Shown: piece by piece, positions 592 to 34,945 of the stretch | How the letters are laid out: each line of letters starts with the position of its first letter | Numbering within the stretch: the stretch's first letter is position 1 | Origin: Thermoplasmata archaeon | GTDB lineage: Archaea; Thermoplasmatota; Thermoplasmata; Sysuiplasmatales; Sysuiplasmataceae | Assembly (NCBI GenBank): GCA_021806165.1 | Contig: JAJZXY010000007.1 | Span: forward strand, 15,059-79,058 | Reading direction: 5' to 3' | Length of the DNA: 64,000 nt | Program-made: the position numbers and the translations under genes | The notes under the pieces: model-generated | Database searches by the model: none | Seen by the model: the letters and a program-made list of their open reading frames with translations, nothing else | What the model was told of the DNA's origin: nothing

Positions 592-837
592 ACGGGCAGG
601 ACAGTGCCCACGTTCAGGGTGGAGATTGAGCGCATCATAGCCAGGTGGGAGAAATTCGGCAGCGCCCTGAGGAGGGAGGAGAGGTCTTACCTGGAGAGCG
701 TGATATCGAAGGCCAGACACCATGCGTCTGCATCAACCTATGCGGCGCTCATAAACCCTGTCGAGGGGATGATGCTCTCCATAATGATGGAGCAGGAAAA
801 GGAAATTGACATGCTCAAGAGGAAATACCACTTCTGA
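592..837 (+). CDS. Small conserved helical protein of PolB2 operons (arCOG07300-like)
   Basis: (T)GRTVPTFR...W..F..ALR.EE...KAR.HA.A..Y...P.E.M.LSI..EQ.K.I pattern. The codon at the expected Met is ACG (592); alternative in-frame TTG at 565. Confidence 0.75.
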   Translation, partial: TGRTVPTFRVEIERIIARWEKFGSALRREERSYLESVISKARHHASASTYAALINPVEGMMLSIMMEQEKEIDMLKRKYHF

Positions 838-851
838 GAGGCATCGGATGG

Positions 852-2987
852 ATGGAAGGATGGATTGCAGATGCATACGCTGACACCGCCAAAAGCAGTG
901 TGATTGTCTGGGTTAAAGGGCAGAGTGTCAGAAGATTTGAATTCAGGTATGTTCCGCCCTTCTACGTTGGAGGGAACCGGACATCCCTCACGGAGCTTGG
1001 GCGGAGGCTCGACAGGATGGGCGATACAGCCTGGAGGCGCACCCTCAGGAAGGCTGCCCCGGGAATGCGCCAGATGGACATGCTGGAGATAACGGCGCAT
1101 GACCTGAGGACATACCGCAAGCTCGCTGAGGGAATATGCTCCATGGGCTCACATGGCAGCTACACGGTGTATGATGCGGACATACCGGTGGAGCAGCATT
1201 TCATGCTCGACATGGGAATCTTTCCGCTGGCATTCGCATCAGTCACCGCAGACAGGATAGAATGCCTCGACTCTCCCGATGAACTGCACTACGAAATGCC
1301 GCCCTTCAGGACGCTGAGCATGGAGGTGGAATTCGATGAGAGGGATTCTGCAGGATATGCTGTCAGAGCAGTGTCTATCGACGGAAATGTGATCGACGGA
1401 GGGGAGGAGCGTATGCTGCTGGAAACATCGAGAATACTGGAGTCAGAGGCATGTGACATATTGCTGACATCCGGGGGCGACGCATATGCTCTCAGGCAGA
1501 TGTACAGGCGCGCCTCTCTGCTCGGGCTGGATGGCTTCACGCTTGGAAGGGAGGGGGGACTCAGGGGATCGTATGCCGCCAGGAGCTACATGAGCTACGG
1601 CAGGATACTGTACAAGCCGTCCCCCGCGCTGCTGATGGGGAGGGCGCACATAGACACCCTCAACTCATTCCTGCACTCGGAGTCGGGGCTTGCAGGACTT
1701 GTCGAGGTATCCAGGCTTTCCTACCTCGGCATACAGCAGCTCTCCAGGCTTTCTCCTGGAACTGCAATAAGCTCCATGGAGAGCATGGAGGCACTTAGGC
1801 AGAATGCAGCAGTGCCGTGGAAGAAAAACAGGGCGGAGATGTTCAAGACCGCGGAAGAACTTGTGCAGTCTGACAGGGGCGGTCTCATATACACGCCTGT
1901 CACCGGCTTCCATGCAGGCGTCTACGGCCTGGACTTCTCATCACTCTACCCGAGCATCATGAAGAGGGAGAATATTTCTGTAGATACGCTCAACTGCCCG
2001 TGCTGCGCCGGTGGAGGGCACAGGGTTCCAGGCCTTCCATACCACTTCTGCAGCAGGAGAGCAGGGCTCATCCCTTCTGTCATAGGAAGGCTGATCATGA
2101 GGCGCAGGAAGTACAAGGGGATGGGGGATGAGTTTGCGGGGAGGAGGAATGCGCTCAAGTGGGTGCTTGTCACATCATTCGGATACACGGGATACAAAAA
2201 TGCAAAATTCGGCAGCATCGAATGCCACGAATCCATCAACGCATTCGGCAGGGAGATGCTGCTGAGGGCAGCGAAAAGGGCTGAGGAGATGGGTTTCACC
2301 GTCCTGCACGGGATAGTGGATTCGCTGTGGATTAAGGGAGAAGGGGATGCAGAGAGATTTGCCGCTGCCATAGGGGATGAGACGGGCATACCGTTCGAGC
2401 TTGAGGGAAGGTACAGGTGGGTTGTATTCCTGAGCAACAAAGGTGACGGGGAGGGGAGCCTGAACAAGTACTATGGCCTCTTCGACGACGGCACTTACAA
2501 GCTGAGGGGGATTGAGCTGAGGAGATCGGATACACCTGAAGTTGTCAGATTTGCACAGAATGTGATGCTCGAGAGGCTGCGCGAATCGTCAGACAGGGAT
2601 GATTTCCTCAGGAGGGCGCGCAGCGGCATCGGGATGGTCAGGGATATAGTGAGGAATGTCAGGCGAGGCAACTATCCGCCGGAGGACATGGTGATAACGA
2701 GGCGCGTTTCGAAGAGGCTTGATGAATATTCGGGAAACGGCGAGGGGAGGAGGGCACTGGTGAGACTCAGGGAGGCAGGTGTCGAGGTCAGCGCAGGCGA
2801 GGTGGTGAAATATGTGGTTGCTGCCGCTGAAAAGGGGAGGAACATTGTCCCCGTCCAGCTGCTGGGTGCCGGAGTGGAGTATGAGGCAGCCCATTACACC
2901 AGGCTTATCGCACGTGCGGTGGCAACGATGCTGCTGCCTTTCGGATATACGGAGGAAAGAGTGCTTTCAATGCTCAGGCATTCTTGA
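852..2987 (+). CDS. polB2: Family B DNA polymerase, PolB2 group
   Basis: Motif A DFSSLYPSI; motif B ALKWVLVTSFGYTG; degenerate motif C HGIVDSLW; no recognisable exonuclease motifs; 711 aa. Confidence 0.9.
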   Translation: MEGWIADAYADTAKSSVIVWVKGQSVRRFEFRYVPPFYVGGNRTSLTELGRRLDRMGDTAWRRTLRKAAPGMRQMDMLEITAHDLRTYRKLAEGICSMGSHGSYTVYDADIPVEQHFMLDMGIFPLAFASVTADRIECLDSPDELHYEMPPFRTLSMEVEFDERDSAGYAVRAVSIDGNVIDGGEERMLLETSRILESEACDILLTSGGDAYALRQMYRRASLLGLDGFTLGREGGLRGSYAARSYMSYGRILYKPSPALLMGRAHIDTLNSFLHSESGLAGLVEVSRLSYLGIQQLSRLSPGTAISSMESMEALRQNAAVPWKKNRAEMFKTAEELVQSDRGGLIYTPVTGFHAGVYGLDFSSLYPSIMKRENISVDTLNCPCCAGGGHRVPGLPYHFCSRRAGLIPSVIGRLIMRRRKYKGMGDEFAGRRNALKWVLVTSFGYTGYKNAKFGSIECHESINAFGREMLLRAAKRAEEMGFTVLHGIVDSLWIKGEGDAERFAAAIGDETGIPFELEGRYRWVVFLSNKGDGEGSLNKYYGLFDDGTYKLRGIELRRSDTPEVVRFAQNVMLERLRESSDRDDFLRRARSGIGMVRDIVRNVRRGNYPPEDMVITRRVSKRLDEYSGNGEGRRALVRLREAGVEVSAGEVVKYVVAAAEKGRNIVPVQLLGAGVEYEAAHYTRLIARAVATMLLPFGYTEERVLSMLRHS

Positions 2988-4107
2988 GCCTGGAGAAGAA
3001 GCCCTTCCCCTTCTCCTCCTCAAGCGATTCGAATTTCTTCAGCAGCTGCTTCTGCTCCGAGGAGAGTTTCTTCGGGACCGTAACCTTGACAGTCACATAG
3101 AGGTCGCCGCTGCCGCGTCCGCCCAGGCGTGGCATGCCCATGGAATTCAACCTGAATACTGTCCCCGGCTGAGTCCCTGCGGGAATCTGCAGCTTTGCCT
3201 TGGAGGACATTGTGGGCACCTCCAGCTCCCCACCAAGGGCGGCAAAGGTGAAGGGCACTTCTGCGGAATAGTAGAGATTCTCCCCTTCCCTTTTGAATGT
3301 ATCATGCTCGGTAACATGTATGACAACGTAGAGATCGCCGCTCGGGCCGCCGTTTGACCCTGCCTCCCCGGCCCCCCGTACGCGGAGTCGCATGCCATCC
3401 TCAGCACCCTTGGGTATTGTAACTTCTATCGTGGACGTGGTCTGCTTCCTGCCGCTGCCGCCGCACGACTTGCACTTCTCACGTATTACCCTGCCCCTGC
3501 CTCCGCAGGTCTGGCATGTCCTGACAGTAACGAAATGGCCCCCGAGCGCAGTCTGCCTGTAGCTCAGCTGGCCCGTGCCGCCGCATGTCGGGCACTGTTC
3601 AAGCTTCCCCTTATCAGCCCCGGTGCCGCCGCACGGCTCGCACTTGACACCGCGCGGTATGTCGAGTCTCCTGCTTGAACCGCGATAAGCCTCGGCCAGG
3701 GTGATTTCAAGGTCATACTGAAGGGAGGCGCCGGTCTCGGGGTAGCTGCCCCTGCTCCCCTGCCCCCCGCCGAAGAAGAAGTCGAAGAGGGAACCTCCGC
3801 CCCCGAAGCCCATTCCGCCGAACAGGTCGCTTATATCCTGAAAGTGTGTGAAATTGGACCAGTCGAATCCCCTCGACCCGAATGTGACTCCCTCGGCGCC
3901 GAAACTGTCGTAGTTCCTCCTCTTGTCGGCATCCATAAGGACCTCGTACGCCTCGGATATCTCCTTGAACTTCTCCTCTGCGACCTTCCTCTCCAGCTTG
4001 GTGACGTCCGGGTGGTACTGCTGCGCAAGCTTCCTGTAAGCCCTCTTGATTTCGTCGGGCGACGCAGTCTTGCTTACTCCTAATGTTTCATAGTAGTCCT
4101 TTGTCAT
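2974..4107 (-). CDS. dnaJ: Chaperone DnaJ
   Basis: J domain with HPD, G/F-rich linker, four CxxCxGxG repeats. Confidence 0.98.
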   Translation of the reverse strand: MTKDYYETLGVSKTASPDEIKRAYRKLAQQYHPDVTKLERKVAEEKFKEISEAYEVLMDADKRRNYDSFGAEGVTFGSRGFDWSNFTHFQDISDLFGGMGFGGGGSLFDFFFGGGQGSRGSYPETGASLQYDLEITLAEAYRGSSRRLDIPRGVKCEPCGGTGADKGKLEQCPTCGGTGQLSYRQTALGGHFVTVRTCQTCGGRGRVIREKCKSCGGSGRKQTTSTIEVTIPKGAEDGMRLRVRGAGEAGSNGGPSGDLYVVIHVTEHDTFKREGENLYYSAEVPFTFAALGGELEVPTMSSKAKLQIPAGTQPGTVFRLNSMGMPRLGGRGSGDLYVTVKVTVPKKLSSEQKQLLKKFESLEEEKGKGFFSRLKNA

Positions 4108-4133
4108 CTGGAGCTGACCTCAGGCTGTGGGGT

Positions 4134-5999
4134 TCACTTGTCGTCAACTATCTTGTAGTTTGCGTCCACGACCCCATCACCTCCGCTGTCATCCCCCTGT
4201 CCATTGCCCGGCGGACTGGCACCCTGTGACTGCGATGCCTGCTGACTCTCCTCGGCCTGCTTCTGGTATATGCGGGAGGAGACTTCATAGACCTTCTTCG
4301 ACACCTGGTCTATCTTCTCCTTAAGTCCGTCTTCCGAGCCGCTTGCAAGCATTTCATCGAGTTCCTTGAGCTCCTTCTCTATTGCCTCCCTCTCGTCGGG
4401 CTGCACCTTGTCCTTCAGCTCATCAAGCGTTTTTCTGGTGCTGTAGGACAGGGATTCTGCCTGGTTGCGCAGTTCAGCCTTCTCCTTGCTCTTCTTGTCC
4501 TCGTCCGCGAACTGCTCTGCCTCCTTCATCATCCTGTCAATCTCGTCCTTCGACAGTTTGTTGCTTGCGGAGATGGTGATCTTCTGCTCCTTTCCCGTTC
4601 CAGTATCCTTTGCGCTTACATTCATGATTCCGTTGGCATCTATATCGAATGTCACCTCTATCTTTGGTATGCCGCGGGGCGCAGGCGGAATGCCGACAAG
4701 GCTGAAACGGCCGAGTGTGACGTTGTTGACGGCCATCGGCCTCTCTCCCTGCAGGACATGGATATCCACAGTCGACTGGCCGTCAGCTGCAGTGGTGAAC
4801 TGCTCCGACTTCTTGGCAGGTATGGTCGTGTTCCTTTCTATCAGCTTGTGGAAGACTCCTCCCTGAACCTCGACACCGAGCGAGAGGGGTGTCACGTCAA
4901 GCAGCAGTATGTCCTTGACAGTTCCCTCCAGGACACCGCCCTGGATTGCAGCGCCCATGGAGACACACTCCATGGGGTCTACACCCCTCACGATCTTCTG
5001 GCCAAGTATCTCCTCCACGAATTTCTGGACCACGGGCATCCTTGTCGGCCCCCCAACCATTATGATCTTGTCTATATTCTGCGCCGAAAGCTTTGCGTCG
5101 CCCAGCGCCTGCATTATTGGGTGCCTGCACTTCTCAATAATCGGGCGCACAAGGTCCTCCAGCTTTGCCCTGGTAATCTTCATTGTGAGGTGCTTCGGTC
5201 CGGAAGCATCCTGTGCTATGAACGGGAGGTTGATTTCAGTCTCCACAATCGTGGAAAGCTCAACCTTCGCCTTCTCGCAAGCCTCCCTGACTCTCTCGGC
5301 AGCCATCCTGTCATTCCTCAGGTCTATCCCTGACTCCGCCTTGAAAGTGCTGACCACGTAATTCACAAGCGCGTTGTCCATGTCTGTTCCGCCGAGCTGC
5401 GTGTCGCCGCTGGTGGAGATCACTTCAAAAACACCCTGGCCGAACTCCATCACTGTCACATCCAGAGTTCCGCCGCCTAGGTCGAAGACGAGTATCTTCT
5501 GCTCATGCTCGCTCTTGTCCAGCCCGTAAGCGAGTGCGGCTGCGGTGGGCTCGTTTATAATCCTCACAACCTCAAGACCGGCAATAGTGCCCGCATCCTT
5601 TGTTGCCTGGCGCTGATTGTCGTTGAAGTAGGCCGGAACTGTGATTACAGCCTTCTGCACGGATGAGCCGAGGAACGCCTCAGCATCCCTCTTTATCTTC
5701 TGCAGCACGAACGCTGATATCTGCTGCGGAGTGTACTCCTTTCCCGAAACCTTGAACTTGTAGTCGCTCCCCATCTTCCTCTTCGCAGCAAAGATGGTCC
5801 CCTCAGGGTTTGTGATTGCCTGCCGCCTTGCTGGCTCGCCGACGAGTACGCCGTCCTTCGTGAACGCAACCACCGAGGGGAACGCCTTCCCGCCTATGCT
5901 GGTCCCTTCTGCACTTGGTATAATTGTTGGCCGCCCCCCCTCAATGACTGATGCGGCCGAATTGCTTGTTCCAAGATCTATTCCTATGATTTTTGTCAT
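4134..5999 (-). CDS. dnaK: Chaperone DnaK (Hsp70)
   Basis: [39 protein letters not shown] at 5999 preceded by SD GAGGTG. Confidence 0.99.
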
Positions 6000-9692: not shown

Positions 9693-9693
9693 G

Positions 9694-14995: not shown

Positions 14996-15832
14996 TCAGA
15001 GAGCCTTCGCCTTGAGCTCTGTCTGTATCTGTTTCAGCTCGTATGAGCTGCTCGATCTGTTGACATAGTCTGCAATCATGTTCCTGACAAGGTAGGGGTG
15101 CTTGACGCCGTAGAAGCATTCACTGGGGAGCGCCCTCGGAACATCCGTCCCGTGGACAGCTATGGAGCCGCTGGCCCTCTCCCTCCCGGAGAGGTTGATA
15201 CCCGTTCCAACGCCAGCGGATGTGACTGGAACCACATTGCCGTATGAGAATATCCTGCCCAGCAGGGAAACATGCACGTCCACATCCACGATGTTCTCGT
15301 AGCGCATGTAAAGCTCATTGTAAGTGAGGAACTTCCTGATTAGAGCGACACGGAGATTTGTTACATAATACCTGTAGGACCTCCTGTAGAAGTCGGCAAG
15401 GAGCACCGCGGCCACGCCCGCCCCTGTTGTCACACCCGCAAGGAAAAGAGTGCTGTGTGACCTGAAGAGTGGGACTGATCTGAGTCCAAGCGAGGCGAGC
15501 GCAATCACGCCTATGAACGAAGCAAGTGTGAGCCAGTGCCTGTGCCTCCTCGTCAGATAGAGTGAGGATATGCCGATGAGGAGGGTCAGAGCTATCCAGA
15601 AGAGCACAGCGCTGTTGTTGCTTGTTGCCCCGAGGGCCACGGTAACATACTGGGCGGCGAAACCCATGTCCGGGGCAACATAGGCCAGCCAGAAACGAGT
15701 GTCCATGAAAGCGTAGTAGATGCCTGACCAGAGCAGGAGCATGATGCCCACCGCATAAATCCTTATGAACGAGAGGCGGCTCGGGTGCAGCTTCTTGACA
15801 AGTTTTTCATCCGGGAACGTCTGAATGTCCGT
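14996..15832 (-). CDS. Membrane protein with bacterial PH (bPH_2)-like domain
   Basis: Frame extends upstream of the annotated GTG to (T)DIQTFPDEKLVKKLHPSRLSF. About four TM helices, then RYYVTNLRV...Y..I.DVDVHVSLLGRIFSYGNV. The only plausible start is ACG at 15832. Confidence 0.75.
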   Translation of the reverse strand, partial: TDIQTFPDEKLVKKLHPSRLSFIRIYAVGIMLLLWSGIYYAFMDTRFWLAYVAPDMGFAAQYVTVALGATSNNSAVLFWIALTLLIGISSLYLTRRHRHWLTLASFIGVIALASLGLRSVPLFRSHSTLFLAGVTTGAGVAAVLLADFYRRSYRYYVTNLRVALIRKFLTYNELYMRYENIVDVDVHVSLLGRIFSYGNVVPVTSAGVGTGINLSGRERASGSIAVHGTDVPRALPSECFYGVKHPYLVRNMIADYVNRSSSSYELKQIQTELKAKAL

Positions 15833-15895
15833 TGCGATTCCTTCCTTCGGCTCTTCTGCTTCCGCTGCAAGCCGAGCAGTGTATGCCCTGCGCCC

Positions 15896-15903
15896 TTATT
15901 TAA
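15896..15903 (-). promoter_or_regulatory. TATA-like element for the bPH_2 gene
   Basis: TTAAATAA on the minus strand about 63 nt upstream of ACG 15832; GAAGGA SD-like motif 6 nt before the ACG. Confidence 0.4.
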
Positions 15904-15934
15904 CTGATCTTGTCTGACGGGCAGTCCCACGAAC

Positions 15935-16441
15935 TCAGCGCGGGTGCAATGCCTTATTCGCATCCCGCCCTTCCCACTGGCTTCCCAGTAGGGAAAGAAG
16001 TATTGAGAGGCGCCTGAGCTCCCTTCTCGCCTGCCCGCTGAGCCTTACGAACTGCCATCGCAGTAGCACCCTTCCCCCGGCCGCAACAAATGAGACACAT
16101 TCGGTGCCCATGATCGTGTCCAGAGCATGCCTCTCAATCCTGACCGAAGCCAGTGCTGTGGCCGGTACGGCAGTCCTCCTGAAGGGCACAAGCTCTACGA
16201 TTACGCTGCCGTCCCTTATGGAGTAGAGCGTCATGACCCTGAAGAAGGGGAAGCAGAGGAAAAGGGAGAGACTCAGCGCAATCGCCGGCGCTTCGGGAAG
16301 GAGGGGAGTCAGACCCATAGACAGCATCGCTCTGTAGACTGCCTGGAACTGAAGCGTGGAAAGGAGTGATAGAGGGATGCCTGCCGAAACGTACGGGAGC
16401 ATCGATGGCCTGATCCTGACAGAGGGTGAGTCAATCTTCAC
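15935..16441 (-). CDS. Small membrane protein, two TM helices plus PH-like C-terminus
   Basis: IRPSMLPY N-terminus, two hydrophobic segments, then TLYSI....V...TAVP...LASVRIER....I.GTE.V.F; GTGA overlap with the upstream gene. Confidence 0.55.
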   Translation of the reverse strand: MKIDSPSVRIRPSMLPYVSAGIPLSLLSTLQFQAVYRAMLSMGLTPLLPEAPAIALSLSLFLCFPFFRVMTLYSIRDGSVIVELVPFRRTAVPATALASVRIERHALDTIMGTECVSFVAAGGRVLLRWQFVRLSGQARRELRRLSILLSLLGSQWEGRDANKALHPR

Positions 16442-17106
16442 CTGTCTCCCCCTCCGCCCCCGGGTCTGCCCCGACCTCCTTCAACAAGACAGGCGGTGTA
16501 TCCTGCAAGCATTCCTGCCTTGAACGAGAGGCCCACAAGGGAGACCTGGGAGGGAGAAGAGAGGAACTCGTCCAGAGAAGCAAGGCATGCGCCCACGGCA
16601 CCGGACGCGTCGCATGGCATCCCGTCGTCGACGAAATTGGAGAGGTGGATTGAAACCAGTTCCGCTCCGGGCAGCGTGCCGCGTTCGTCTATGCGCCTGA
16701 CCACATTCATCACAGCCTCCCTTGCCCCGGCAGGGTTGACTGCCTCACCTTCAAGAGCCGGAGACGGGGACAGTGGGAGGGTGGACTGCATGGTATCGTG
16801 CAGTGAGAGGGAGTGCACCGTTATATTGCAGCGCTGAAGTGTGTCCAGTTCGCCCCTCAGCCACCCTGACCAGAATGCTATCTCCAGCAGGGTTGATGCC
16901 TGGTCGTCACCGGCTATTGCCACTTCCGGTCTCGCATCCTCCTTCAGCCTGCTCCTTATTCTCTCAGCCCACCACCTGTTGCCTCCGTCCGTCCCCTCGA
17001 GTATGGAGGAGGCCTCCGCCAGCTCCTCCTCGACCTCCGCAAGCCATGAGGAGAGCATGCCCTTCAGCATCTCGAGCCTCCTCCTGTATTTCATATTCTC
17101 TCCCAC
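16438..17106 (-). CDS. Hypothetical soluble accessory protein of the T4SS-like cluster
   Basis: 222-aa ORF tightly packed between neighbours; internal pseudo-repeat AFWSGWLRG / SFKAGMLAG. Confidence 0.55.
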   Translation of the reverse strand: MGENMKYRRRLEMLKGMLSSWLAEVEEELAEASSILEGTDGGNRWWAERIRSRLKEDARPEVAIAGDDQASTLLEIAFWSGWLRGELDTLQRCNITVHSLSLHDTMQSTLPLSPSPALEGEAVNPAGAREAVMNVVRRIDERGTLPGAELVSIHLSNFVDDGMPCDASGAVGACLASLDEFLSSPSQVSLVGLSFKAGMLAGYTACLVEGGRGRPGGGGGDR

Positions 17107-17109
17107 CGC

Positions 17110-18810
17110 TCACTCACCCCCTCCTGTCAGAGCAGAGAGTTCACGCAGGGAGTCAAGGGCCATCCTGCAGATTGCACCTTCAGGCGTTTCATGCTCAGGG
17201 GCATCGGAGCTGCACATAAGCCTCTCCTCCACGGAGGAGGGCACAAGGAGTGGAATCCTGTACCTTGATGTGATGAATATGCACCTGCCCGAGGAAGTGG
17301 CACGCGGCACGGAGTCTGAAATGAACGAGTATTCCCCGTCAGAGAGTGAGAGCGATCCTCCCATACTCCCCTCCCCCCTCTCATGCCTGAAGATGAAGTA
17401 ACTGCTGCAATTGTTGAGTATCCCCTCACCGAGCGAGCCTCCCCGGAAATCATCGACATTCTGAGACAGCAGTATGACACCGAGGCCGTAATGCCTGGAA
17501 TGCCTCATTATCTCGGACATGACATTCGCGGCCTCCCCGTCCCTGGAGAGATTCCATGCCTCGTCCACGATAAGCGTCTTCCTTCCCCCCAGGCGTCTGC
17601 AGCGCTCATACACTAGGGCGGAAATGAGGCATATCATAGGTGCCAGCCTGTCCCTCGGAAGCGAGCCCAGGTCGAATACGGTCAGGGCTCTACCCCCGGA
17701 GGGAATTCTGTTTCCGCCCATAAGTCTCAGAAATTCGGCGGAGCCGTATACTGAAGCCGCTCTGTCTGAGCTGCCGCGGGAAGATATGCACTCGGCCGCG
17801 ATCTGCGAGGGTGTCAATGACGGATTGTAGGCGGCAATCCCGGATGCAAGTGCCACAAGAGACGTTGAGTCTGCAACGTCAGGGCCCCCGCAATGCCGCA
17901 GGTAGAGAAGTAGACGGGGCAGGAGGCGCACGAATTCATCTGCACCGAGGAGGTTCAGACCGAGTCCTTCCCGTGCAACATCGATAACCTCGCCGCCACA
18001 ACCAAGCCCGCAGGTGAAGAATTCACCGAGCGGGTCGATTACAAACCAGCTCATTCCTGGAAAGGCACTTTCCCTCATGACAATCAGCTTGGCGAAGAAA
18101 CTCTTTCCGCTCCCGCTTTTGCCGACGATGGCCGCATTGAAGTTGGGGAGTGAGAAGCGATCGAACACCACCGCCGATCCGTCTACTGCATTCACACCCA
18201 GGAATGTACCCATGCTGTCTGCCACATCGGTCCCTGTAAACGGTATCAGGGCAGGCAGAGAATCTGCTGAAACCACAGGGCATCCGGCAAATGAGGGCCG
18301 CCGGTCAAGTGCAAATTCCCTGAGACCGTCCAGCTGCCTGTACCTCATGTTTGTGTAGGATACGGAGCTTGAAGCCAGCTCGGACTCGACAAGTCTCCTC
18401 TCCGATTCCGCGCCCTCCTGCGAAGTTGAGCAGACAGCGAGCAGCAGGGAAGCGTAATGGAGTGATGTCCTGGACATCCGGACATCCTCGGCGAGCGCCC
18501 TGAGCTCATCGGCGTCATTGACCAGCGCGTCCGCATGCTTTCCTGACTGCATCCTAGTGACTGCTTCAGCCCCCATTGCAAGCACGGTCCTGTCGATGAG
18601 ACCCGCAGAATGGGTCCTGGACATTCTGTACAGCGAGAGGGAGGCCGATACGAAGGGGTATCGGAGCAGTATGTCCGAAAGCCATCCGGCGGGCAGCGCC
18701 GGGGGGAAGGAGGTGACACGCAGCACTGAGACCGTGCCCGACCCTACAGACAGGGAGGTCGGGTCACGGCCTGCTGAAATTCCCCTTGACCGCATTCGCC
18801 TCCAAATCAT
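17110..18810 (-). CDS. VirB4-like P-loop ATPase
   Basis: FDRFSLPNFNAAIVGKSGSGKSFFAK (Walker A), FVIDPLGEF, LIVDEAW (Walker B), RHSRHYGLGVILLSQ, ILNNCSSYFIFRH; ATGA overlap with the upstream gene. Confidence 0.9.
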   Translation of the reverse strand: MIWRRMRSRGISAGRDPTSLSVGSGTVSVLRVTSFPPALPAGWLSDILLRYPFVSASLSLYRMSRTHSAGLIDRTVLAMGAEAVTRMQSGKHADALVNDADELRALAEDVRMSRTSLHYASLLLAVCSTSQEGAESERRLVESELASSSVSYTNMRYRQLDGLREFALDRRPSFAGCPVVSADSLPALIPFTGTDVADSMGTFLGVNAVDGSAVVFDRFSLPNFNAAIVGKSGSGKSFFAKLIVMRESAFPGMSWFVIDPLGEFFTCGLGCGGEVIDVAREGLGLNLLGADEFVRLLPRLLLYLRHCGGPDVADSTSLVALASGIAAYNPSLTPSQIAAECISSRGSSDRAASVYGSAEFLRLMGGNRIPSGGRALTVFDLGSLPRDRLAPMICLISALVYERCRRLGGRKTLIVDEAWNLSRDGEAANVMSEIMRHSRHYGLGVILLSQNVDDFRGGSLGEGILNNCSSYFIFRHERGEGSMGGSLSLSDGEYSFISDSVPRATSSGRCIFITSRYRIPLLVPSSVEERLMCSSDAPEHETPEGAICRMALDSLRELSALTGGGE

Positions 18811-19388
18811 GGATTCACCTCAGACAGAAGCATGCCCAGCAGCGGATGCATTTCCAGACTGCCGCCTTCCCGTGGTCTGACATTTGCCGACCCCACAGCC
18901 GGCTCGGCGGTGATTCCGCGTGGGAGCGCCATGTAGAAAGAGCGGCCGCATGAATCAGACATGCCCGGGACTGAAAGGAAGTGGACCGGCTCCCCCTCCC
19001 CTGCGCAGAGGCCGAGGAAGGATGAAAGGACTGCCTCCCTTTCATCATCAGGGGCGAATGAGAAGCTCAGGCCGGATATTGCATACTGGCGCATGCCTGA
19101 GTCATCCTTCTGCTGTGGAAGGAGAGGGGAGCGGTGAATTCCCATCCTGTATAGGATATACGAGTGAGCCAGGTGCAGTGGCCTCCTTCCCCGCCTCCCC
19201 TGGAATATCAGCCAGAATGCCATGCAAAGCGCAGCGACTGCGGCTGAGGCAGAGGCCTCCGGAGAGATGCGCCATGCCGCAAGCGGTACTGCCGAAATTC
19301 CGAGAGTTAGGCTTTCTCTCAGCGTGAACGGACCCATGACTGCTGACTCGTAGCGGAGTTGAGAGGGGAATGTGCAGTTCTCAGCCGT
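18807..19388 (-). CDS. PrgI/TcpE-like membrane protein carrying a VirB4-N-terminus-like segment
   Basis: FPSQLRYESAVMGPFTLRES + two TM helices, then YAISGLSFSFAPDDEREAVLSSF. Start is ACG 19388 (SD GGGGGTG) or GTG 19397; the ORF-track start overlaps the upstream gene by about 200 nt. Confidence 0.65.
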   Translation of the reverse strand, partial: TAENCTFPSQLRYESAVMGPFTLRESLTLGISAVPLAAWRISPEASASAAVAALCMAFWLIFQGRRGRRPLHLAHSYILYRMGIHRSPLLPQQKDDSGMRQYAISGLSFSFAPDDEREAVLSSFLGLCAGEGEPVHFLSVPGMSDSCGRSFYMALPRGITAEPAVGSANVRPREGGSLEMHPLLGMLLSEVNP

Positions 19389-20490
19389 TCCTTCCACCCC
19401 CTGCGTAAATCCTGTGTGGGGAGGATTCCTGCCCTGTCTTTCCCCCCACTCCAGCCCCGCCAGGCCTCCTGAGCGGCTGCGCACCCAGAGGCGATACTGC
19501 CTTCTGCCCGCTCCTTGCAGCGGTACCCGCAGCCCTTTCAAGGAGGAATCTGCCGTGCCTGCTTCCTGCATCGAATGCGCCTGCATAGCGCGACCGCCTG
19601 CCGCTCACCGGTGCTGCTGTCTTCCCGCCTGACGCGGCGCGGCGGAAGGGTGATGTGAAGAAGCCCGCGGCATAGGTGGCGGCACCCATCGATATTACGG
19701 AGGCTGCGCCCGCGACCGCAGCAAATGACGGCAAACCCAGGAACTGCATCACCCTCGCACCGCCGGGTGAGATTATGAATGGCATGATGAGAGGCAGAAT
19801 GTAGGTGCCGGCTATGACAAGGGACGGAACCTGCAGCGAGCTGAAGGTGGAATATGAGGTTGCTATTGCGATCCTGAAACCCACCGCCATGAAAAAGGGG
19901 AGGAATGCCATTTCAAGGAAGAAAGAGAACATCTTCCGGGAGAATGATCTCGTGGCGCCGAAAACATCGCAGAGGAGCAGCAGCGGCATTATCGCTGCGG
20001 TGAAGAATACGAGGAGGACCCTGACAATCAGGACAAGGTAGAGCAGCATTGTAACAATCCCAAGCAGCAGGAGAGCGCCTATGCTGAAACCTCCCAGTTT
20101 TGCCGCGATGGATGAGGAATAAGTGGCAAGCTCACTGTATGGGAGGACGAAAGAGGTCATTGCATCGTTGATGTCCAGAACCAGCTGTGCGAAATAGAGG
20201 GTGAAGGGCATGAGCACGATTGCCACAAGCAGCCTGCTGAGCGTCCTTGACGTCCCTCCCCTGCCATGTATCGGTATGCCCGTGAAGAGCGAGTAGGCAA
20301 CCAGGACAACCGCCACCGCGAGAAGCGATTCGGAAATGAAAAGGACTGCTTCCCATGCACTGAGAGTCCCGGTGGTGAACAGGTTGGTCGAGACAGCCAT
20401 TGCAGGCACGATCGCCCTGAGGACGGCCAGTATTGCGCTTCTGAAGAGGCCGTCGAAGGTCTGGACCACGATTGTTCCAATTCCCGCCAC
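19381..20490 (-). CDS. VirB6/CedA-like polytopic membrane protein
   Basis: About six TM segments; L..LL.AI.L.PFT.YF.Q..LD.NDA and LYLVLIVRVLLVFF.AAIMPL..L motifs; basic low-complexity tail; GTG start with SD GAGGTG. Confidence 0.75.
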   Translation of the reverse strand: MAGIGTIVVQTFDGLFRSAILAVLRAIVPAMAVSTNLFTTGTLSAWEAVLFISESLLAVAVVLVAYSLFTGIPIHGRGGTSRTLSRLLVAIVLMPFTLYFAQLVLDINDAMTSFVLPYSELATYSSSIAAKLGGFSIGALLLLGIVTMLLYLVLIVRVLLVFFTAAIMPLLLLCDVFGATRSFSRKMFSFFLEMAFLPFFMAVGFRIAIATSYSTFSSLQVPSLVIAGTYILPLIMPFIISPGGARVMQFLGLPSFAAVAGAASVISMGAATYAAGFFTSPFRRAASGGKTAAPVSGRRSRYAGAFDAGSRHGRFLLERAAGTAARSGQKAVSPLGAQPLRRPGGAGVGGKTGQESSPHRIYAGGGRNG

Positions 20491-20499
20491 AGTTTCACC

Positions 20500-20601
20500 T
20501 CACGGCTGCAGCCTCTCCTCCACGAAGACAGCGGCCCTGTAAATGGCGGCTGCAAGGAGGGAGGCTACTGCGGCGACTTCAAGCAGCGACTGGAAATCCA
20601 T
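20500..20601 (-). CDS. 33-aa single-TM peptide absent from the ORF track
   Basis: MDFQSLLEVAAVASLLAAAIYRAAVFVEERLQP*. ATG overlaps the pilin stop (TGATG); the stop overlaps the SD of the next gene. Confidence 0.6.
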   Translation of the reverse strand: MDFQSLLEVAAVASLLAAAIYRAAVFVEERLQP

Positions 20602-20948
20602 CAGACCACCAGCGACTGCGCCAGCTGCACAAGGAATGTCGAGACAAATAGAAGGAATATTCCAAATGTGACATCCATGAAATACCTCCTTGCCTTCGAC
20701 CGCTGTTCAGGATTGCCCGTGCTTGTCATCCACATGTATGCAGTCACAACATAGCCAATTGCTGCGATGACTGTGCCGATGGCAACGAGCAGATTCCTCA
20801 CGTTCGTCAGCGTTCCCACAAGCTCCTCCTGCGGCGTTGCAGCAGACGCAAGCCCTGCAGCGGCAACAAGTATTGCCGGCAGGAGGAGCGCTGCAATGCA
20901 CACTGTTGAGGCCCTAACTCTCCCCTTTCCCGCTCCTGAACCAGACAT
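20601..20948 (-). CDS. VirB2/TrbC-like pilin precursor
   Basis: Signal peptide ending LASA|A, then amphipathic helix, TM1 (LLVAIGTVIAAIGYVVTAY), basic loop (TGNPEQRSKARR) and TM2 (VTFGIFLLFVSTFLV). Confidence 0.8.
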   Translation of the reverse strand: MSGSGAGKGRVRASTVCIAALLLPAILVAAAGLASAATPQEELVGTLTNVRNLLVAIGTVIAAIGYVVTAYMWMTSTGNPEQRSKARRYFMDVTFGIFLLFVSTFLVQLAQSLVV

Positions 20949-29328: not shown

Positions 29329-30693
29329 ATGTTTCCTGACATCTACGATCCAGTTTACGTCGTCACAATTATATTCTTCATTGTGGGACTGCACAGGATG
29401 AGCCACCCCAGGACTGCGAGGAGCGGCATCATGTGGGCGGGTGGCGCAATGGCGATCGCCGTCCTTGTTACATTCTTCTACCCTGGAATGCACAACCTGA
29501 CCCTTATAGTGGTGGGCATAGCCATAGGCGGAAGCATAGGTTGGATTGCGGCGAAGCGCGTCGCAATGACAGACATGCCGCAGATGGTTGCCATCTACAA
29601 TGGAATGGGCGGCGGGGCTGCCGGTGCGATTGCAGCTGTAGAGCTGCTTACATCCGCATCAAACGGTGCTTACTCGGCGCTCGCGGTGGCTGGTGCTGCC
29701 ATAGGAGGCATCTCCATCTCGGGGAGCGTCATTGCATTCCTGAAGCTCCAGGGATGGATGAGGCAGAAGCCCATCACATACCCGGGGCAGCAGCCTGTCA
29801 ACATCATAGTCCTGCTGGCGACCATCGCTTTCGGCGTCCTGGTGCTCTTTCCGGGCATCGCCGGCTTCAACACACTCCTGCTCTTCTTCATATTCGCAAT
29901 CGGGTATGGTATACTGATGACCCTGCCGATTGGCGGGGCGGACATGCCAGTGGTCATATCACTCTACAATGCGCTCACGGGTCTGGCGGTGGCGATGGAC
30001 GGCTTCTCGCTCCAGAACTATGCAATGGTGGTTGCCGGAACGCTTGTCGGTGCAGCCGGTTCCCTGCTGACGCTTCTGATGGCAAAGGCCATGAACAGGT
30101 CCATCGGCAATGTGCTCTTCAGCGCCTTCGGTGCAAAGGAGGAGGAGAATGCAAACATCACGGGCTCAATGAAGCCTGTACAGCCCGAAGATGCTGCGGT
30201 AATGCTCGCATACGCCAACAGCGTGATAATCGCCCCCGGTTACGGCATGGCTGTCGCACAGGCTCAGCAGAAGGTCAAGGAGCTCGTAGACCTGCTTGAG
30301 TCCAAGGACATACCTGTCAAGTTTGCAATACACCCTGTTGCGGGGAGAATGCCGGGCCACATGAACGTCCTTCTTGCTGAAGCTGGCGTTTCATACGACC
30401 ACCTCTTCGACAGGGACGAAATCAACGCAGACTTCCCCAACACGGACGTTGTGCTGGTCATTGGAGCAAATGATGTTGTGAACCCTGCAGCAAGGAGGGA
30501 GGGAAGCGCACTGGCCGGAATGCCCATCCTGGATGTCGACAAGGCGAAGAATGTCATTGTGTTCAAGAGGGGGCAGGGAAGGGGATTCTCCGGTATAGAG
30601 AATGAGCTCTTCTATGCCGACAACACCAAGATGCTCTACGGTGATGCAAAGGATTCTGTTTCAAAGATCATACAGGAACTGAAGAAGCTCTGA
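29329..30693 (+). CDS. pntB: NAD(P) transhydrogenase beta subunit
   Basis: TDMPQMVAIYNGMGGG, PIGGADMPVVIS, PGYGMAVAQAQ, HPVAGRMPGHMNVLLAEA, GANDVVNPAA. Confidence 0.98.
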   Translation: MFPDIYDPVYVVTIIFFIVGLHRMSHPRTARSGIMWAGGAMAIAVLVTFFYPGMHNLTLIVVGIAIGGSIGWIAAKRVAMTDMPQMVAIYNGMGGGAAGAIAAVELLTSASNGAYSALAVAGAAIGGISISGSVIAFLKLQGWMRQKPITYPGQQPVNIIVLLATIAFGVLVLFPGIAGFNTLLLFFIFAIGYGILMTLPIGGADMPVVISLYNALTGLAVAMDGFSLQNYAMVVAGTLVGAAGSLLTLLMAKAMNRSIGNVLFSAFGAKEEENANITGSMKPVQPEDAAVMLAYANSVIIAPGYGMAVAQAQQKVKELVDLLESKDIPVKFAIHPVAGRMPGHMNVLLAEAGVSYDHLFDRDEINADFPNTDVVLVIGANDVVNPAARREGSALAGMPILDVDKAKNVIVFKRGQGRGFSGIENELFYADNTKMLYGDAKDSVSKIIQELKKL

Positions 30694-30694
30694 T

Positions 30695-31642
30695 TCAACC
30701 GCGGATGGACGAAGCGCACCTGGAAATGCATGCATTGAGCAGAGCTTCCGGATCCCCGGTGCATTCAAGGACAGCTGCCCCGGCATGGCCTCCCGACCTT
30801 CCGCAGAACTGCCTTGCCACATCGCCCAGTATGGACGGCAGGTCAAGACCGCATTCAATTCCCCTCTGTGAAAGCCGTGCGGTCACCCTTATCTTCCCCT
30901 CCCTGTCTGATGCGACAAAGGATGCATCCGCCCCGGCGCCGACCATTGCCGATGCAACCGACGATTCGTATGAGGATACTTCGCTGCTGCACAGGAAGAG
31001 CCCCCGTTTCTCAACATGCCTCATCCTTTCAAGCCCTTTCAGCACCGCTATCTGCTCTCCCCTCCCCTTCCCCTGGCCGAACTTCAGCAGAAGGTGCTCA
31101 ATGTCTGAGCCTGCCACATCAAGCAGACGTGCAACCGCCGCAAAGGTTGCCGCACTCCCGCGTCTGAACCTGCCGGTGTCTGAAAGAATGCCTGCAGCAA
31201 GCGCCTCGGCCGAGGGACCGTCTATGGAGAGGCCTGCGCCCTCGACTACGCGCAATGCAAGCTCTGAGCATGAACGCGCATCCGCATCGATGCAGTGTGT
31301 GCACTGCGGCGATTCGCCCTGAATGGGATGATGGTCGAGAATCAAGAGCTCAATGCCTGAGACGTCAAGCTGCGGTATCTCCTGCGTGTCCACCACAAGA
31401 AGCCTGCCGCATTCGGGCATTGTTTCCACGGCAGCTATATCCATGACAGCGGCCATTGCTGACGCATCCCTGTCAAGTCCGCCGGGCGCCCATATGGAAG
31501 GTGAACCAAAACTCCTCTGAATCGCCCATGCGCTCGCAAGGGCATCCCGGTCTGCATGCATGTGGACTGCAATGCAGAAAGGGCCGCTCAGCAGCTTCCT
31601 GCCCAGTTCGCCGGGCGTCAGTCCGGTGCCATGGGCAGTCAA
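30695..31642 (-). CDS. DHH/DHHA1 family phosphoesterase
   Basis: HMHADRDA, VVDT, LDHHP, GILSDTGRF, GGHAGAA. Confidence 0.88.
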   Translation of the reverse strand: MTAHGTGLTPGELGRKLLSGPFCIAVHMHADRDALASAWAIQRSFGSPSIWAPGGLDRDASAMAAVMDIAAVETMPECGRLLVVDTQEIPQLDVSGIELLILDHHPIQGESPQCTHCIDADARSCSELALRVVEGAGLSIDGPSAEALAAGILSDTGRFRRGSAATFAAVARLLDVAGSDIEHLLLKFGQGKGRGEQIAVLKGLERMRHVEKRGLFLCSSEVSSYESSVASAMVGAGADASFVASDREGKIRVTARLSQRGIECGLDLPSILGDVARQFCGRSGGHAGAAVLECTGDPEALLNACISRCASSIRG

Positions 31643-32007
31643 GAACCCTCTTCCCTGCCCTGGGACGGCCCCAGGACCTTTGACAGCTCTTCCTGCAGGG
31701 ACTGGTAGCGTTCCCTGAGATGCTTTTCCTGCTTCTCGATTGATTTGACCCTGATGTCGAGCGTCTCCTTCTGCTCAGTGAGATCCTTCAGGACAGTCTC
31801 CCTGTCCTTCGCCTTTATCATCAGTGAGCCGACGTTCTTGTAAATGACAGCGTCCTGCTGGAGACCGTTGAGCTCCTCCAGCGCCTTCGAAACCTCCCTG
31901 GACTGGGCCTCCAGCTGGTACCTCTGGCTGGAAAGTACCTGAATCTGCTGCTGTATCTGCTGGTACTGTGAAATCTGGTTCTGCAACTTGGGACTGATGT
32001 CATTCAT
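31639..32007 (-). CDS. pfdB: Prefoldin beta subunit
   Basis: QNQISQYQQIQQQ...KALEEL......IYKNVGSLMIK; ATG at 32007. Confidence 0.95.
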   Translation of the reverse strand: MNDISPKLQNQISQYQQIQQQIQVLSSQRYQLEAQSREVSKALEELNGLQQDAVIYKNVGSLMIKAKDRETVLKDLTEQKETLDIRVKSIEKQEKHLRERYQSLQEELSKVLGPSQGREEGS

Positions 32008-32281
32008 CGGTATCACTCCTGGGGGACTCGCGTGACTTTCCGGCCGCGCTCTTCCGCACGTCGAGTGCAAGATGAGTCCATCTTATATAAGAATTCATAG
32101 CCGCCCTCAGCGCACCCAGATCCTCCGCCTCTACGCACATGGCCCCCTCCCCCGCGGTCATGCTCCATCTGACACGGCACTTTGGAACCTCCCTCTCCAC
32201 CTCGGGACCCAGAACGCTCCTGAGGTACTCCGCCTCCTCCCGGGTGAAAACAATTCTGGCCGTGTGCCTGTATACGCTCAT
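32000..32281 (-). CDS. pcc1: KEOPS complex subunit Pcc1
   Basis: AEDLGALRAAMNSYIRW motif; conserved position between rpoP and pfdB. Confidence 0.88.
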   Translation of the reverse strand: MSVYRHTARIVFTREEAEYLRSVLGPEVEREVPKCRVRWSMTAGEGAMCVEAEDLGALRAAMNSYIRWTHLALDVRKSAAGKSRESPRSDTDE

Positions 32282-32412
32282 TTGGAGATTAGCTGCTTCT
32301 TGACGTTTGGCCTTTCCTTCACGAATATCTTGGAGCCGCACTTGTCGCATTGCAGGCCCACGGTGTTAACGCCCGAACGGGCGGGTTCACCGCACCTTAT
32401 GCACTTGTACAT
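32278..32412 (-). CDS. rpoP: RNA polymerase subunit Rpo12 (RpoP), 44 aa, absent from the ORF track
   Basis: MYKCIRCG...LQCDKCGSKIFVKERPNVKKQLISK*; lies between rpl37Ae and pcc1. Confidence 0.93.
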   Translation of the reverse strand: MYKCIRCGEPARSGVNTVGLQCDKCGSKIFVKERPNVKKQLISK

Positions 32413-32413
32413 T

Positions 32414-32680
32414 TCAGAGGCCTCCCTTGCTTCCCTCTTGCCTGGGGACGTTCAGGTTTCTTGCGGTTGCAACATACGCCCTTGCGGCGTACTTGTAGCC
32501 GCAGTGCCTGCACTTCCATATGGCTGATGCCTCGCGCTCAACCGAAGCGGTGCCGCACTTGGGACATGCAGTCTTCCTGTTGCGCTCCCTGTCTACTTCC
32601 AGTATTCTTGACCTGATCCGAACGCCGTAGCGCGGGCCGTACCTTGCGGCGGACCCTATCTTCTTTGCATTGTTGGACAT
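32414..32680 (-). CDS. rpl37ae: 50S ribosomal protein L37Ae
   Basis: GSAARYGPRYG, CPKCG...V.R....IW.C..CG. Confidence 0.97.
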   Translation of the reverse strand: MSNNAKKIGSAARYGPRYGVRIRSRILEVDRERNRKTACPKCGTASVEREASAIWKCRHCGYKYAARAYVATARNLNVPRQEGSKGGL

Positions 32681-32691
32681 CTTTCAGCACC

Positions 32692-33465
32692 TCACAGCTT
32701 TTCCCTTATCGCCTTGCCGGCTTCGGTGGACATCTGTATCGCCTTCTTGACCTCTTCGTAGGTGAAGAAGCCGTTTCCACCCTTCTGCATTGCCCGGAGG
32801 TCACCGTTCTCGTCCGTCGCAACCGTCAGCCTGGCCGATGACACCTCATCCTCCTCAAGCGTCGGGTCGAGAACCAGGTAGTCACCGATCTTCACAGTTG
32901 TGCATGATATTGGCATGGAGCGGAGCGGCAGCTGGAAGTCCTCCCCCTTGCCGAAGCGTTTCGCAGGCACAACGGTGTTCTTGAGCGCGGCAACAGCCGC
33001 AATCGACGAAGCGTCGAACAGGTTGCCGTCGTAGTCGAGAGCATATATGTCAACATAGAGCACCCAGACCTCCTTCTTTGGCTCGATGCAGAGCCCCTCG
33101 AGGTCTATCATCTGGCTCTCCCTTATTCCCCTGTCGACCACCCTGGAAAGTTCAATGGCCATTGGGGACGGCGGTCCGCTTTCGAACTCCTCGAATGCCA
33201 TGGGGATGAGTTCCACGTTCGTTGTGAGCACTCCCTTGTTGGGCGTGTCGCCGAACGGTTCCCCTACGCCCATCTTGATGCCCACCGCAACCTCAGTGTT
33301 GCCAAGCTTCATTCTGGCCGAACCTTCGGCTGTCTCGATGGCCCCCTCGATGATGGAGACGGGTCTCATCTCGTCGAGATTCCTCCCGTCACTCCTCTTC
33401 CCCTTGGAAAGGAGGGTGCTTATATGTCCCTTCTTGACTTCTGAAAGCGGGCTCCTCTGGCTCAT
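32692..33465 (-). CDS. rrp42: Exosome core subunit Rrp42
   Basis: [40 protein letters not shown]. Confidence 0.97.
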
Positions 33466-34256
33466 GCCTCATTCCCCCCTGCTTCCTGTTCGCTCTCCTG
33501 CGCATCCCCGCCTGCGAAGGCATAGCGCCTGCGAAGGGCGTCCTGCTGCAGGCCGTAGATTGTGGTGCATCCACCCTTGGCGAGTTCGATTGCCCTGTCA
33601 AACTCGGCCTGTGTTAGATGGCCGTCCATCTGGAGAAGCAGTATCTCCCCCGTCCTCGGTATGTATGCAAGCGGAACGTCGGCATCACCGAAGTTGTCCT
33701 CCTCCTTGTTCAGATCCAGGACCACCGTGTCGGCAACCTTGCCTGCGGCGCAGGCAGGTATCAGGTCCCTCATCGGGATTCCTGCGTCAGCAACAGCAAC
33801 GGATGCGGCTGTCAGCCCGGCGCACCTCGTCCCCGCGTTTGCCTGGAGAACAGCTATGTAGACATCAATGGAGGTGCGCGGAAACTGCTCAAGGAATATG
33901 CTGTATTCCAGCGCCTCTCCCACGATCTTCGATATTTCAACCGAGCGCCTGTCAGGCCCTGGCCTCTTCCTGTCGTCGACAGAGAAAGAGAGCATGTTGT
34001 AGTGGCACTGCACAATAGCCCTTGTAGGGTCCTGGAGATGCCTTGGATGGCACTCCCTCGGCCCGTAAACGGCTGCAAGAATCTTGTTCTTGCCCATCTC
34101 CACGTAGGCTGAGCCGTCTGCCCTTCTCAGCACGCCTGCCTCAATCTTTATGGGGCGCAGCTCATCGGCCCTCCTTCCGTCCAGCCTCTTTCCTTCCTCA
34201 TCTATCAGTTTCAATCCTTCGGGTAAATCCATACTCATTAAATCACCGTAACTCAT
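33462..34256 (-). CDS. rrp41: Exosome core subunit Rrp41
   Basis: [45 protein letters not shown]. Confidence 0.97.
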
Positions 34257-34945
34257 TCATTTGCGGCGGGAAAGGTCTTCTCGAGGTAGTCCCTTACCCT
34301 GTCCGTCAGGCCGTGCGTGTGGGCCCCTTCGTCTATCATGCGTATCGCCTTCGCAAGGGCGACGATATTCTCAACCTCGCCGTCAAGCCATATCTTCCCG
34401 TTCTTCCCTACAAGCATCTTGCAGCCCGAATAGCGCTTGAGCATATCAATCATCGAGCCGCTCTTCCCTATCACCCTGGGGACCTTTGCATACGGGATGC
34501 TCACCACATGCCCCCCTCTGAGCTTCCTCAGGCTCTGGTCCCTCATGGTGAGCTGGACATGCTTTGAGTCGTCTACCGACAGTATCCTGGCAGTGACGTT
34601 GTCACCCAGCTCAAGGTACTTGGCAGTCGCACCGAATTCCACCCTCCACGGGGATTCTGAAGCATGCAGAACCCCAGGATAAGGCGAATTTATATCCATC
34701 AGCCAGTTGGATGATGTCATGTCCGTCACAGTTCCTATGACATCGTCCCCTGAGAATGGAACGTACTTCCCAGAAAGGGGGAGTATGTCGACATAATTCC
34801 CCTTGGATATCCTGAGTCCCAGCGTCGTCGAGTACGCCTTGCCCTCCTTCCTGTATGTGCCGAAGCCCGGGCGCCTGCTGCCTGTATCCACCGGCTGCCC
34901 TGGAATCACTATGGCTCTTTCCGCCTCACCGCTTGTCGCCGACGT
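34253..34945 (-). CDS. rrp4: Exosome RNA-binding subunit Rrp4
   Basis: [20 protein letters not shown] (S1), [20 protein letters not shown] (KH). Start is ACG 34945 or GTG 34909. Confidence 0.95.

Follow-up and report, generated by a model that had tools for sequence, protein, structure and literature searches.

Archaeal translation is held to begin at AUG, GUG and UUG only, and the rare starts recorded across prokaryotes are GUG and UUG generally, the AUU codons of infC and pcnB, and the CUG and AUH codons (AUC, AUA and AUU) listed as starts in genetic code table 11. Near-cognate initiation at ACG is known from eukaryotes and viruses, where it opens adeno-associated virus VP2, the Sendai virus C′ protein and the mitochondrial isoform of yeast ALA1. 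In the literature that we searched, ACG initiation appeared only in plant organelles (by editing), eukaryotic genes and viruses, and we found no archaeal or natural bacterial ACG start. Here we analyse a stretch of 64,000 nucleotides (nt) from contig JAJZXY010000007.1 of an uncultivated acid-mine Thermoplasmata archaeon (assembly GCA_021806165.1), referred to as the window, in which four ACG triplets, at positions 592 (forward strand) and 15832, 19388 and 34945 (reverse strand), each stand in frame with a downstream open reading frame (ORF; Table 1). The original prediction, that these triplets replace the initiator ATG of four unrelated genes, is borne out by the sequence in its positions, its reading frames and the purine-rich motifs quoted ahead of each ACG; it slightly overstated the independence of the genes, as the sites at 15832 and 19388 share one conserved cluster resembling a type IV secretion system (T4SS). 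Its central claim is strongly supported by comparison with relatives for two genes, encoding the exosome subunit Rrp4 (site 34945) and a membrane protein with a bacterial PH domain (bPH_2; site 15832), and for these ACG is most likely a real, previously unrecognised archaeal start codon. At the remaining two sites, in a DUF8156 gene (592) and in a small gene of the T4SS-like cluster (19388), the claim is plausible only, and canonical rivals stand in frame.

The closest named relatives of the source archaeon are the acid-mine-drainage Thermoplasmata metagenome-assembled genomes YP4.bin116, YF1.bin95 and WH2.bin25, with Candidatus Sysuiplasma superficiale (order Ca. Sysuiplasmatales) as an outgroup. 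L numbers denote related DNA loci and P numbers homologous proteins: L006 and L007 are two Logan assemblies, L008 and L009 are GCA_046706185.1 and a Logan assembly, L015 is JAKAVR01 (YP4.bin116), L016 is JAKAPY01 (YF1.bin95) and L017 is Ca. Sysuiplasma superficiale. The ACG is repeated in assemblies from Logan (SRR31012008, SRR31309758, SRR31229537, SRR16630536 and SRR31012000), NCBI (JBJKPR01, JAKAVR01, JAKAPY01, JAJZMQ01, DAICOD01 and DAIFAH01), JGI (Ga0080006) and ENA (ERZ27237452).

ACG at the start columns of Rrp4 and bPH_2

On comparative grounds, Rrp4 appears to be the strongest of the four cases. In normally started orthologs, Met stands exactly ten residues ahead of the motif R-x-I-V-x-P-G, and the window ACG occupies that column. 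The same column, with its distance to the motif also counted as nine codons, reads ACG in five lineages (the window, L006/L007, L008/L009, L015 and L016) and ATG (L017, L018) or GTG (L036-L038) in outgroups. All five lineages keep GGAGTG or GGAGAG 9 nt from the ACG and an in-frame stop 0 or 2 codons ahead of it; the four lineages other than the window read GGAG[TA]G-TGA-AT[AT]-NNN-ACG. Past this stop the relatives contain no ATG, GTG or TTG for 47 codons (L006, L015 and L016) or 77 codons (L008), the first one falls within the N-terminal domain or past it, and the stretch devoid of canonical starts in these four loci encodes the conserved N-terminal and S1 domains. Of the 37 differences between L006 and L008 in this stretch, 24 are at third positions, and the codon changes comprise 20 synonymous and 9 nonsynonymous ones; judged by these substitutions, the sequence ahead of the first canonical start is evolving as coding sequence under purifying selection.

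In the window, any start further upstream in the Rrp4 frame, including the conserved ATT, is excluded because TAA directly precedes the ACG. The database call for this gene begins instead at GTG 34909 and gives 218 amino acids (aa), and positions 1-220 of the NCBIfam profile NF003181 match residues 9-223 of the protein read from ACG. A GTG at this place occurs in the window Rrp4 only, its use would cost 12 residues, and its Shine-Dalgarno (SD) geometry is poor (spacing 14). We also considered that ACG 34945 is the mere first codon past a stop lying inside a TATA-like element (TATTTAAA), with GTG 34909 as the start; this idea was overturned by the relatives that lack that GTG. Rrp4 is an essential and universally conserved exosome subunit, and no other usable start is present in four of the five ACG lineages. 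Separately, the intergenic region between SBDS and Rrp4 contains a conserved element of about 25 nt (GCAAATTGAACAGCGTTTTGGTCC; window positions 34965-34995, reverse strand), preceded by a TATA-like stretch rich in A/T. The element recurs in L006, L008, L015 and L016 and may regulate the exosome operon from the 5′ untranslated region or from near the promoter.

The bPH_2 gene carries ACG at its start column in six lineages: the window with L002/L003; L004; L005; L019/L020 (52% identity); L030/L031; and L032-L035 (four assemblies). Met fills this column in P0004 (MEIQLFPDEKL) and in P0010 from L029 (ATG AAT GTT CAA CTG TTC). At the DNA level, seven lineages conserve GAAGG[AG]-ATN-NNN, followed by ACG in six and by ATG only in L029 (GAAGGG-ATT-NNN), whose protein is otherwise like that of L032 at the N terminus (MNVQLF versus TNVQLF). 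To judge from these alignments, the bPH_2 ACG is ancient, common to lineages at about 50% protein identity and not specific to the window genome. Across a run of 48 codons in the window, between the stop at 15898 and GTG 15751, there is no ATG, GTG or TTG; L004, L020 and L032 likewise lack a canonical start, and the family motif x-[DE]-I-Q-x-F-P-D-E-K-L-x-x-x-H-P-S-R falls within this stretch. Over codons 1-26 past the ACG, the window and L004 differ by 15 synonymous and 3 nonsynonymous changes, and upstream of it they are unalignable except for the SD and a TATA-like octamer (TTAAATAA), a putative promoter that would imply a leadered, SD-bearing bPH_2 mRNA. A homopolymer indel at 15832 (an out-of-frame ATG at 15810 with a run of five A, where one extra A would yield MKKLVKKLHPS) was rejected because every ortholog encodes FPDEKL in the frame of the ACG. 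A metagenome scan for the bPH_2 gene added one lineage only. In both genes an ATN triplet stands two codons ahead of the ACG, or of ATG in L018 and L029 (position -2), at 15836-15838 and 34949-34951 of the window (reverse strand) and in L004, L005, L006, L008, L015, L016, L018, L020, L029, L030 and L032.

The source archaeon clearly uses SD elements. Against the usual archaeal 16S 3′ end (GAUCACCUCCU), assumed here with the 16S sequence itself lying outside the window, pairing predicted by RNAduplex has a median of -8.6 kcal/mol at 36 curated canonical starts versus -3.9 kcal/mol at random positions. All four ACG sites pair more strongly than every rival canonical start (from -7.8 kcal/mol at 15832 to -13.8 kcal/mol at 19388; Table 1), at aligned SD spacings of 2-4 nt, where the canonical mode is 2-5 nt. 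As a bare pattern, an SD followed by ACG does not exceed chance: among 750 in-frame codons between the upstream stop and the first ATG, GTG or TTG of window ORFs, 118 have an equal or better anti-SD match, and ACG is not enriched among these 118. Any codon shows the pattern, and we set this enrichment test aside as uninformative. The significance of the four ACGs comes instead from each falling on a start column defined by orthologs. The ortholog alignment proposed as a check in the original prediction placed all four ACGs on the family start column, where orthologs have Met or another start codon, and the opposite outcome, orthologs that start elsewhere with no Thr at the Met column, did not occur.

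Conservation separates the two strong sites from the others. The ACG is identical in six lineages for bPH_2 and five for Rrp4, whereas at 592 and 19388 it is confined to the window lineage; for comparison, 28 of 116 internal ACG codons of the window (24%) are retained as ACG in GCA_046706185.1, and baseline retention is given as 24-31%. A correlation at the level of lineages, with ACG in both strong genes or in neither, was considered and rejected, since GCA_021798215.1 has ACG in its bPH_2 gene and ATG in Rrp4. When the N termini of about 45 window genes were compared with the syntenic loci in relatives, no further ACG start came to light, and Pfam coordinates of the remaining window genes gave no further domain beginning upstream of the first canonical start. 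A survey of related loci (about 150 kb, about 230 ORFs) found only Rrp4 and bPH_2 to have a long conserved coding stretch ahead of their first canonical start. Other genes start with ATG, GTG or, fairly often, TTG. TTG starts are frequent and conserved in relatives (10413, forward strand; 36861, 47466 and 56006-57043, reverse strand), in genes that include those for the initiation factor aIF2 beta, the proteasome-activating nucleotidase and a 99-aa protein encoded ahead of the proteasome alpha subunit; at several start columns, lineages differ in whether they carry ATG, GTG or TTG.

Sites 592 and 19388 and their gene neighbourhoods

As first noted, three of the four genes have weaker canonical alternatives, namely TTG 565 and GTG 604 for site 592, GTG 19397 and ATG 19337 for site 19388, and GTG 34909 for Rrp4; site 15832 has none before GTG 15751.

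The gene at 19388 lies between TrbL/VirB6-like and VirB4-like genes, and its orthologs start with ATG (L004, L029 and L030) or TTG (L005). These starts always overlap the TrbL-like stop by 8 nt (NNG-NNT-GAN), 6-7 nt past GGGGTG, AAGGTG or GGGGAGG. The window ACG-GCT-GAG stands in exactly this arrangement, and the N termini align (x-x-E-x-C-x-[IF]-P...GPFT). The ACG has an aligned spacing of 3, and the GTG at 19397 pairs at -5.0 kcal/mol with a spacing of -5; the database start, ATG 19337 (176 aa), aligns to an internal Leu of the orthologs. ACG at this site is known from this genome only, in one assembly. From the shared arrangement, an ACG start here is plausible, with GTG 19397 as a canonical rival in frame.

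The surrounding T4SS-like cluster (14996-20948, reverse strand) encodes a TrbC/VirB2-like pilin, a 33-aa ORF, the TrbL/VirB6-like protein, the small membrane protein of site 19388, a VirB4/HerA-like ATPase, two unknown proteins and the bPH_2 membrane protein. Seven Thermoplasmata lineages keep this gene order, flanked by an acetyltransferase and topoisomerase I, and because of this synteny we regard the cluster as chromosomal and vertically inherited, not as a plasmid or an element that has integrated. For the same reason we rejected a mobile conjugative element, with sloppy genes, as the setting of sites 15832 and 19388. The cluster may be a Ced/Ted-like DNA-transfer apparatus.

Site 592 appears to be the weakest of the four cases, and an ACG start there is plausible. 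Nearly all of 74 DUF8156 homologs begin MGRTVPT[YF]R; the window protein and the 99%-identical P0020 read T-GRTVPTFR, with Thr in the Met column. Relatives have TTG (L012-L014) or CTG (L010/L011) at the ACG column, together with an in-frame ATG or GTG three codons upstream. We do not claim CTG as a further non-canonical start in L010, where that upstream codon is an in-frame GTG. The window retains ATG 587, overlapping TGA 588-590 as ATGA in the manner of coupled genes, out of frame with DUF8156 because the spacer from ATG to GGC is four bases shorter (5 nt versus 9 nt in L010 and L012); P0020 has the same frame. TTG 565, with a GAGGT SD at an aligned spacing of 2, is a rival in frame. The gene belongs to a conserved three-gene unit (63-2987, forward strand), also present in L010-L013, that encodes a RadA/Rad51-like protein, DUF8156 and a family-B DNA polymerase (711 aa); the three genes overlap or abut, and the unit adjoins dnaJ-dnaK-grpE and thermosome genes.

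Table 1 Features of the four ACG sites in the window
Feature	Position	Strand	Remarks
ACG at DUF8156 Met column	592..594	+	Family N-terminus alignment
DUF8156 (PF26485) gene read from ACG, 81 codons	592..837	+	1 nt past TGA 588-590 of RadA-like gene
SD-like GGGGG, 7 nt before ACG 592	580..584	+	-9.1 kcal/mol, aligned spacing 2
ACG at bPH_2 membrane protein start column	15830..15832	-	
bPH_2 membrane protein gene read from ACG, 278 codons	14996..15832	-	
SD-like GAAGGAAGGA, then ATC (conserved ATN codon at -2)	15836..15848	-	-7.8 kcal/mol
TATA-like TTAAATAA, about 64 nt upstream of bPH_2 ACG	15896..15903	-	Same octamer in L004, L005
ACG at start column of gene between TrbL/VirB6-like and VirB4-like genes	19386..19388	-	
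T4SS-cluster small membrane protein gene read from ACG, 193 codons	18807..19388	-	
SD GGGGGTG, 6 nt before ACG 19388, containing in-frame rival GTG 19397	19395..19401	-	
ACG at Rrp4 start column	34943..34945	-	Aligned with Met of P0099, P0106, P0128, P0135, P0152
Rrp4 gene read from ACG, 230 codons	34253..34945	-	Pfam ECR1_N_2, S1 and KH domains
In-frame TAA directly upstream of Rrp4 ACG, after ATT 34951-34949	34946..34948	-	
SD-like GGAGTG, 9 nt before Rrp4 ACG	34955..34960	-	-9.6 kcal/mol, aligned spacing 4

Proposed SD-assisted initiation and competing readings

The triplets lie at the ortholog start column, several lineages lack a canonical alternative, the SDs match those of canonical starts in strength and spacing, the codon is conserved, and the coding signature starts with the ACG; together these observations suggest that the triplets are probably genuine initiation codons, used by SD-assisted near-cognate initiation. 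On a leadered or translationally coupled mRNA, an SD at normal spacing would place the ACG in the ribosomal P site, where the ordinary initiator Met-tRNA would read it directly as a near-cognate with a C:A mismatch at the middle position. Initiation would be reduced but sufficient, and its low output may have been selected for the stoichiometry of Rrp4 and the dosage of a T4SS-cluster protein. At 592 and 19388, which lie within 1-5 nt of an upstream stop, coupling of termination and reinitiation may help. Relaxed, near-cognate recognition with down-tuning is the most parsimonious of the three mechanisms first offered.

Several points weigh against this reading. It is built on comparative genomics; the lineages compared are phylogenetically non-independent, and the codon-conservation probabilities are rough. 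Initiation at ACG in E. coli is reported at no more than about 0.1-1% of the AUG level, and its products carry Met or, in part, Thr as the first residue (10.1101/063800), and efficient ACG use in archaea would be unusual because archaeal aIF1 is reported to reject AUU in vitro (PMC4705826). In both strong genes translation could start at the conserved ATN at -2, the main rival start; among the Rrp4 lineages, TAA blocks this codon (ATT) in the window alone, and the window alone has a GTG nearby (34909). TTG 565, with its well-spaced SD, and GTG 19397 remain canonical rivals in frame, and the ancestral-looking ATG 587, retained out of frame, indicates that the start region at 592 may simply be damaged.

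In a rival reading, the ACG is an ordinary, if unusually conserved, Thr codon near the N terminus and translation starts elsewhere: at AUN (AUC, AUA or AUU) at -2 for bPH_2 and the relatives' Rrp4, or at GTG 34909, TTG 565 or GTG 19397. We consider this unlikely. In its favour, ATN at -2 is kept in all lineages of Rrp4 and bPH_2 with its third base free; the bPH_2 protein P0011 (L030) has ATG at that column; the Rrp4 frame of L006, L008, L015 and L016 opens exactly at ATA or ATT past TGA; in the window, the TAA that follows ATT is paired with a unique GTG 12 codons downstream; TTG 565 has the SD described above; and AUH codons outperform ACG as near-cognate starts in E. coli (10.1101/063800). 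The geometry points the other way. A start at -2 would have an SD spacing of -4 in bPH_2, never observed among 21 canonical starts, and of -1 to -2 in Rrp4, at the edge of the distribution, whereas the bPH_2 ACG has an aligned spacing of 2 and the AU(C) at -2 is predicted by RNAduplex to pair with 16S GAU, that is, to form the 3′ end of the SD. Both L018 and L029 keep ATT at -2 though a plain ATG fills the ACG column, so conservation of ATT does not imply start function. The order ATT-TAA-ACG excludes an ATT start in the window Rrp4, the SD geometry of GTG 19397 and GTG 34909 is poor, and a Thr codon leaves without explanation the zero synonymous change at the ACG, set against baseline retention. 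The ATN may extend the SD duplex at its 3′ end (AU:16S GAU) or be a rival AUH start.

Initiation at ACG could also reflect a peculiarity of a Sysuiplasmatales-related Thermoplasmata clade with its own way of using the codon, by mRNA C-to-U editing, an ACG-reading initiator tRNA or altered aIF1/aIF2, which we think quite unlikely; if true, the mechanism would serve an essential RNA-processing gene and would have been long maintained, and such mRNA editing would be the first in Archaea. A changed machinery, with an extra initiator-like tRNA bearing a CGU anticodon or a relaxed aIF1 or aIF2, would make ACG efficient at a few percent of genes. ACG does occupy the start column of about 4 of 60 window genes and 2 of about 45 in GCA_046706185.1, a frequency similar to that of TTG, and single start columns turn over among ATG, GTG, TTG, CTG and ACG. 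Deep conservation of ACG is nevertheless seen in two genes only, and the window aIF2 beta (46846-47466, reverse strand; TTG start, C-terminal TRAM domain) is the known long TRAM-fused form, a full-length match to NCBIfam NF008993 with no novelty; scans of the window and 14 related loci for tRNA genes and Rfam families returned no tRNA gene and no Rfam match. We hold this version to be improbable. Site-specific C-to-U editing, in which the genomic ACG becomes AUG in the mRNA and initiation is canonical, seems slightly more improbable still. Edited organellar start codons are classically recognised by a genomic ACG at a column where related genomes read ATG; in the literature searched, the term 'ACG initiation codon' is applied to eukaryotic or organellar systems every time it occurs; and ATG and ACG alternate between close relatives (L029 versus L032-L035). 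To our knowledge, however, no archaeal mRNA undergoes C-to-U editing, the one known archaeal case being tRNA C8 editing in Methanopyrus, and beyond the SD, plus ATN in two genes, the sequences that flank the ACGs in the four genes and in their orthologs have no context in common. Least credible of all is the view that the ACGs are errors of sequencing or assembly, or that mutation has recently removed the starts of decaying genes, although the source is a metagenome-assembled genome, the ancestral ATG at 592 is out of frame and the ACG at 19388 is seen in this genome only. The same ACG recurs in independent assemblies from different samples and pipelines at 15832 and 34945, and Thr is repeated in P0020 at 592, which refutes the assembly error allowed for in the original prediction at these three sites. 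All four ORFs are intact, free of frameshifts and stops, invariant family residues are present, and synonymous changes outnumber nonsynonymous ones, indicating purifying selection; error and decay are largely refuted.

Annotation and relation to known systems

Public calls of both genes in relatives are N-terminally truncated, at 155-185 aa versus about 230 for Rrp4 (P0096, P0097, P0101, P0109 and P0117) and at 245-249 aa versus about 278 for bPH_2 (P0001, P0005-P0008, P0013, P0014 and P0016), because gene callers do not allow ACG, which lies outside code table 11. If confirmed, SD-assisted initiation at ACG would mean that SD-anchored archaeal ribosomes use a codon mismatched at its second position productively, would provide a natural system for the study of start-codon fidelity (aIF1/aIF2) in archaea, and would expose a systematic annotation error; the ortholog-column test is applicable to all archaeal genomes.

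Among known systems, plant organelles that create start codons by C-to-U editing (psbL, ndhD) share with this locus a genomic ACG exactly at the Met column and ATG in related genomes. Their editing needs pentatricopeptide repeat (PPR)-type factors and an upstream cis-element, whereas no cis-element beyond the SD is shared here, and we know of neither such factors nor their cis-element in archaea. The rare non-AUG starts of prokaryotes are similar in their SD-led mRNAs, in a weak codon kept by selection and in down-tuned or regulated expression, and this clade uses TTG and GTG freely; ACG differs in its mismatch at the second codon position and in its absence from code table 11. ACG starts of eukaryotes and viruses offer a further parallel, in that the initiator ACG is evolutionarily conserved and is decoded by initiator Met-tRNA at a reduced efficiency that sets dosage, as we propose here. 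Those starts depend on 40S scanning, Kozak context and eIF1/eIF5, whereas the archaeal ACGs would depend on an SD:anti-SD duplex or on coupling to an upstream stop; and where the eukaryotic and viral ACG begins an alternative isoform, the ACG of Rrp4 would be the only start.

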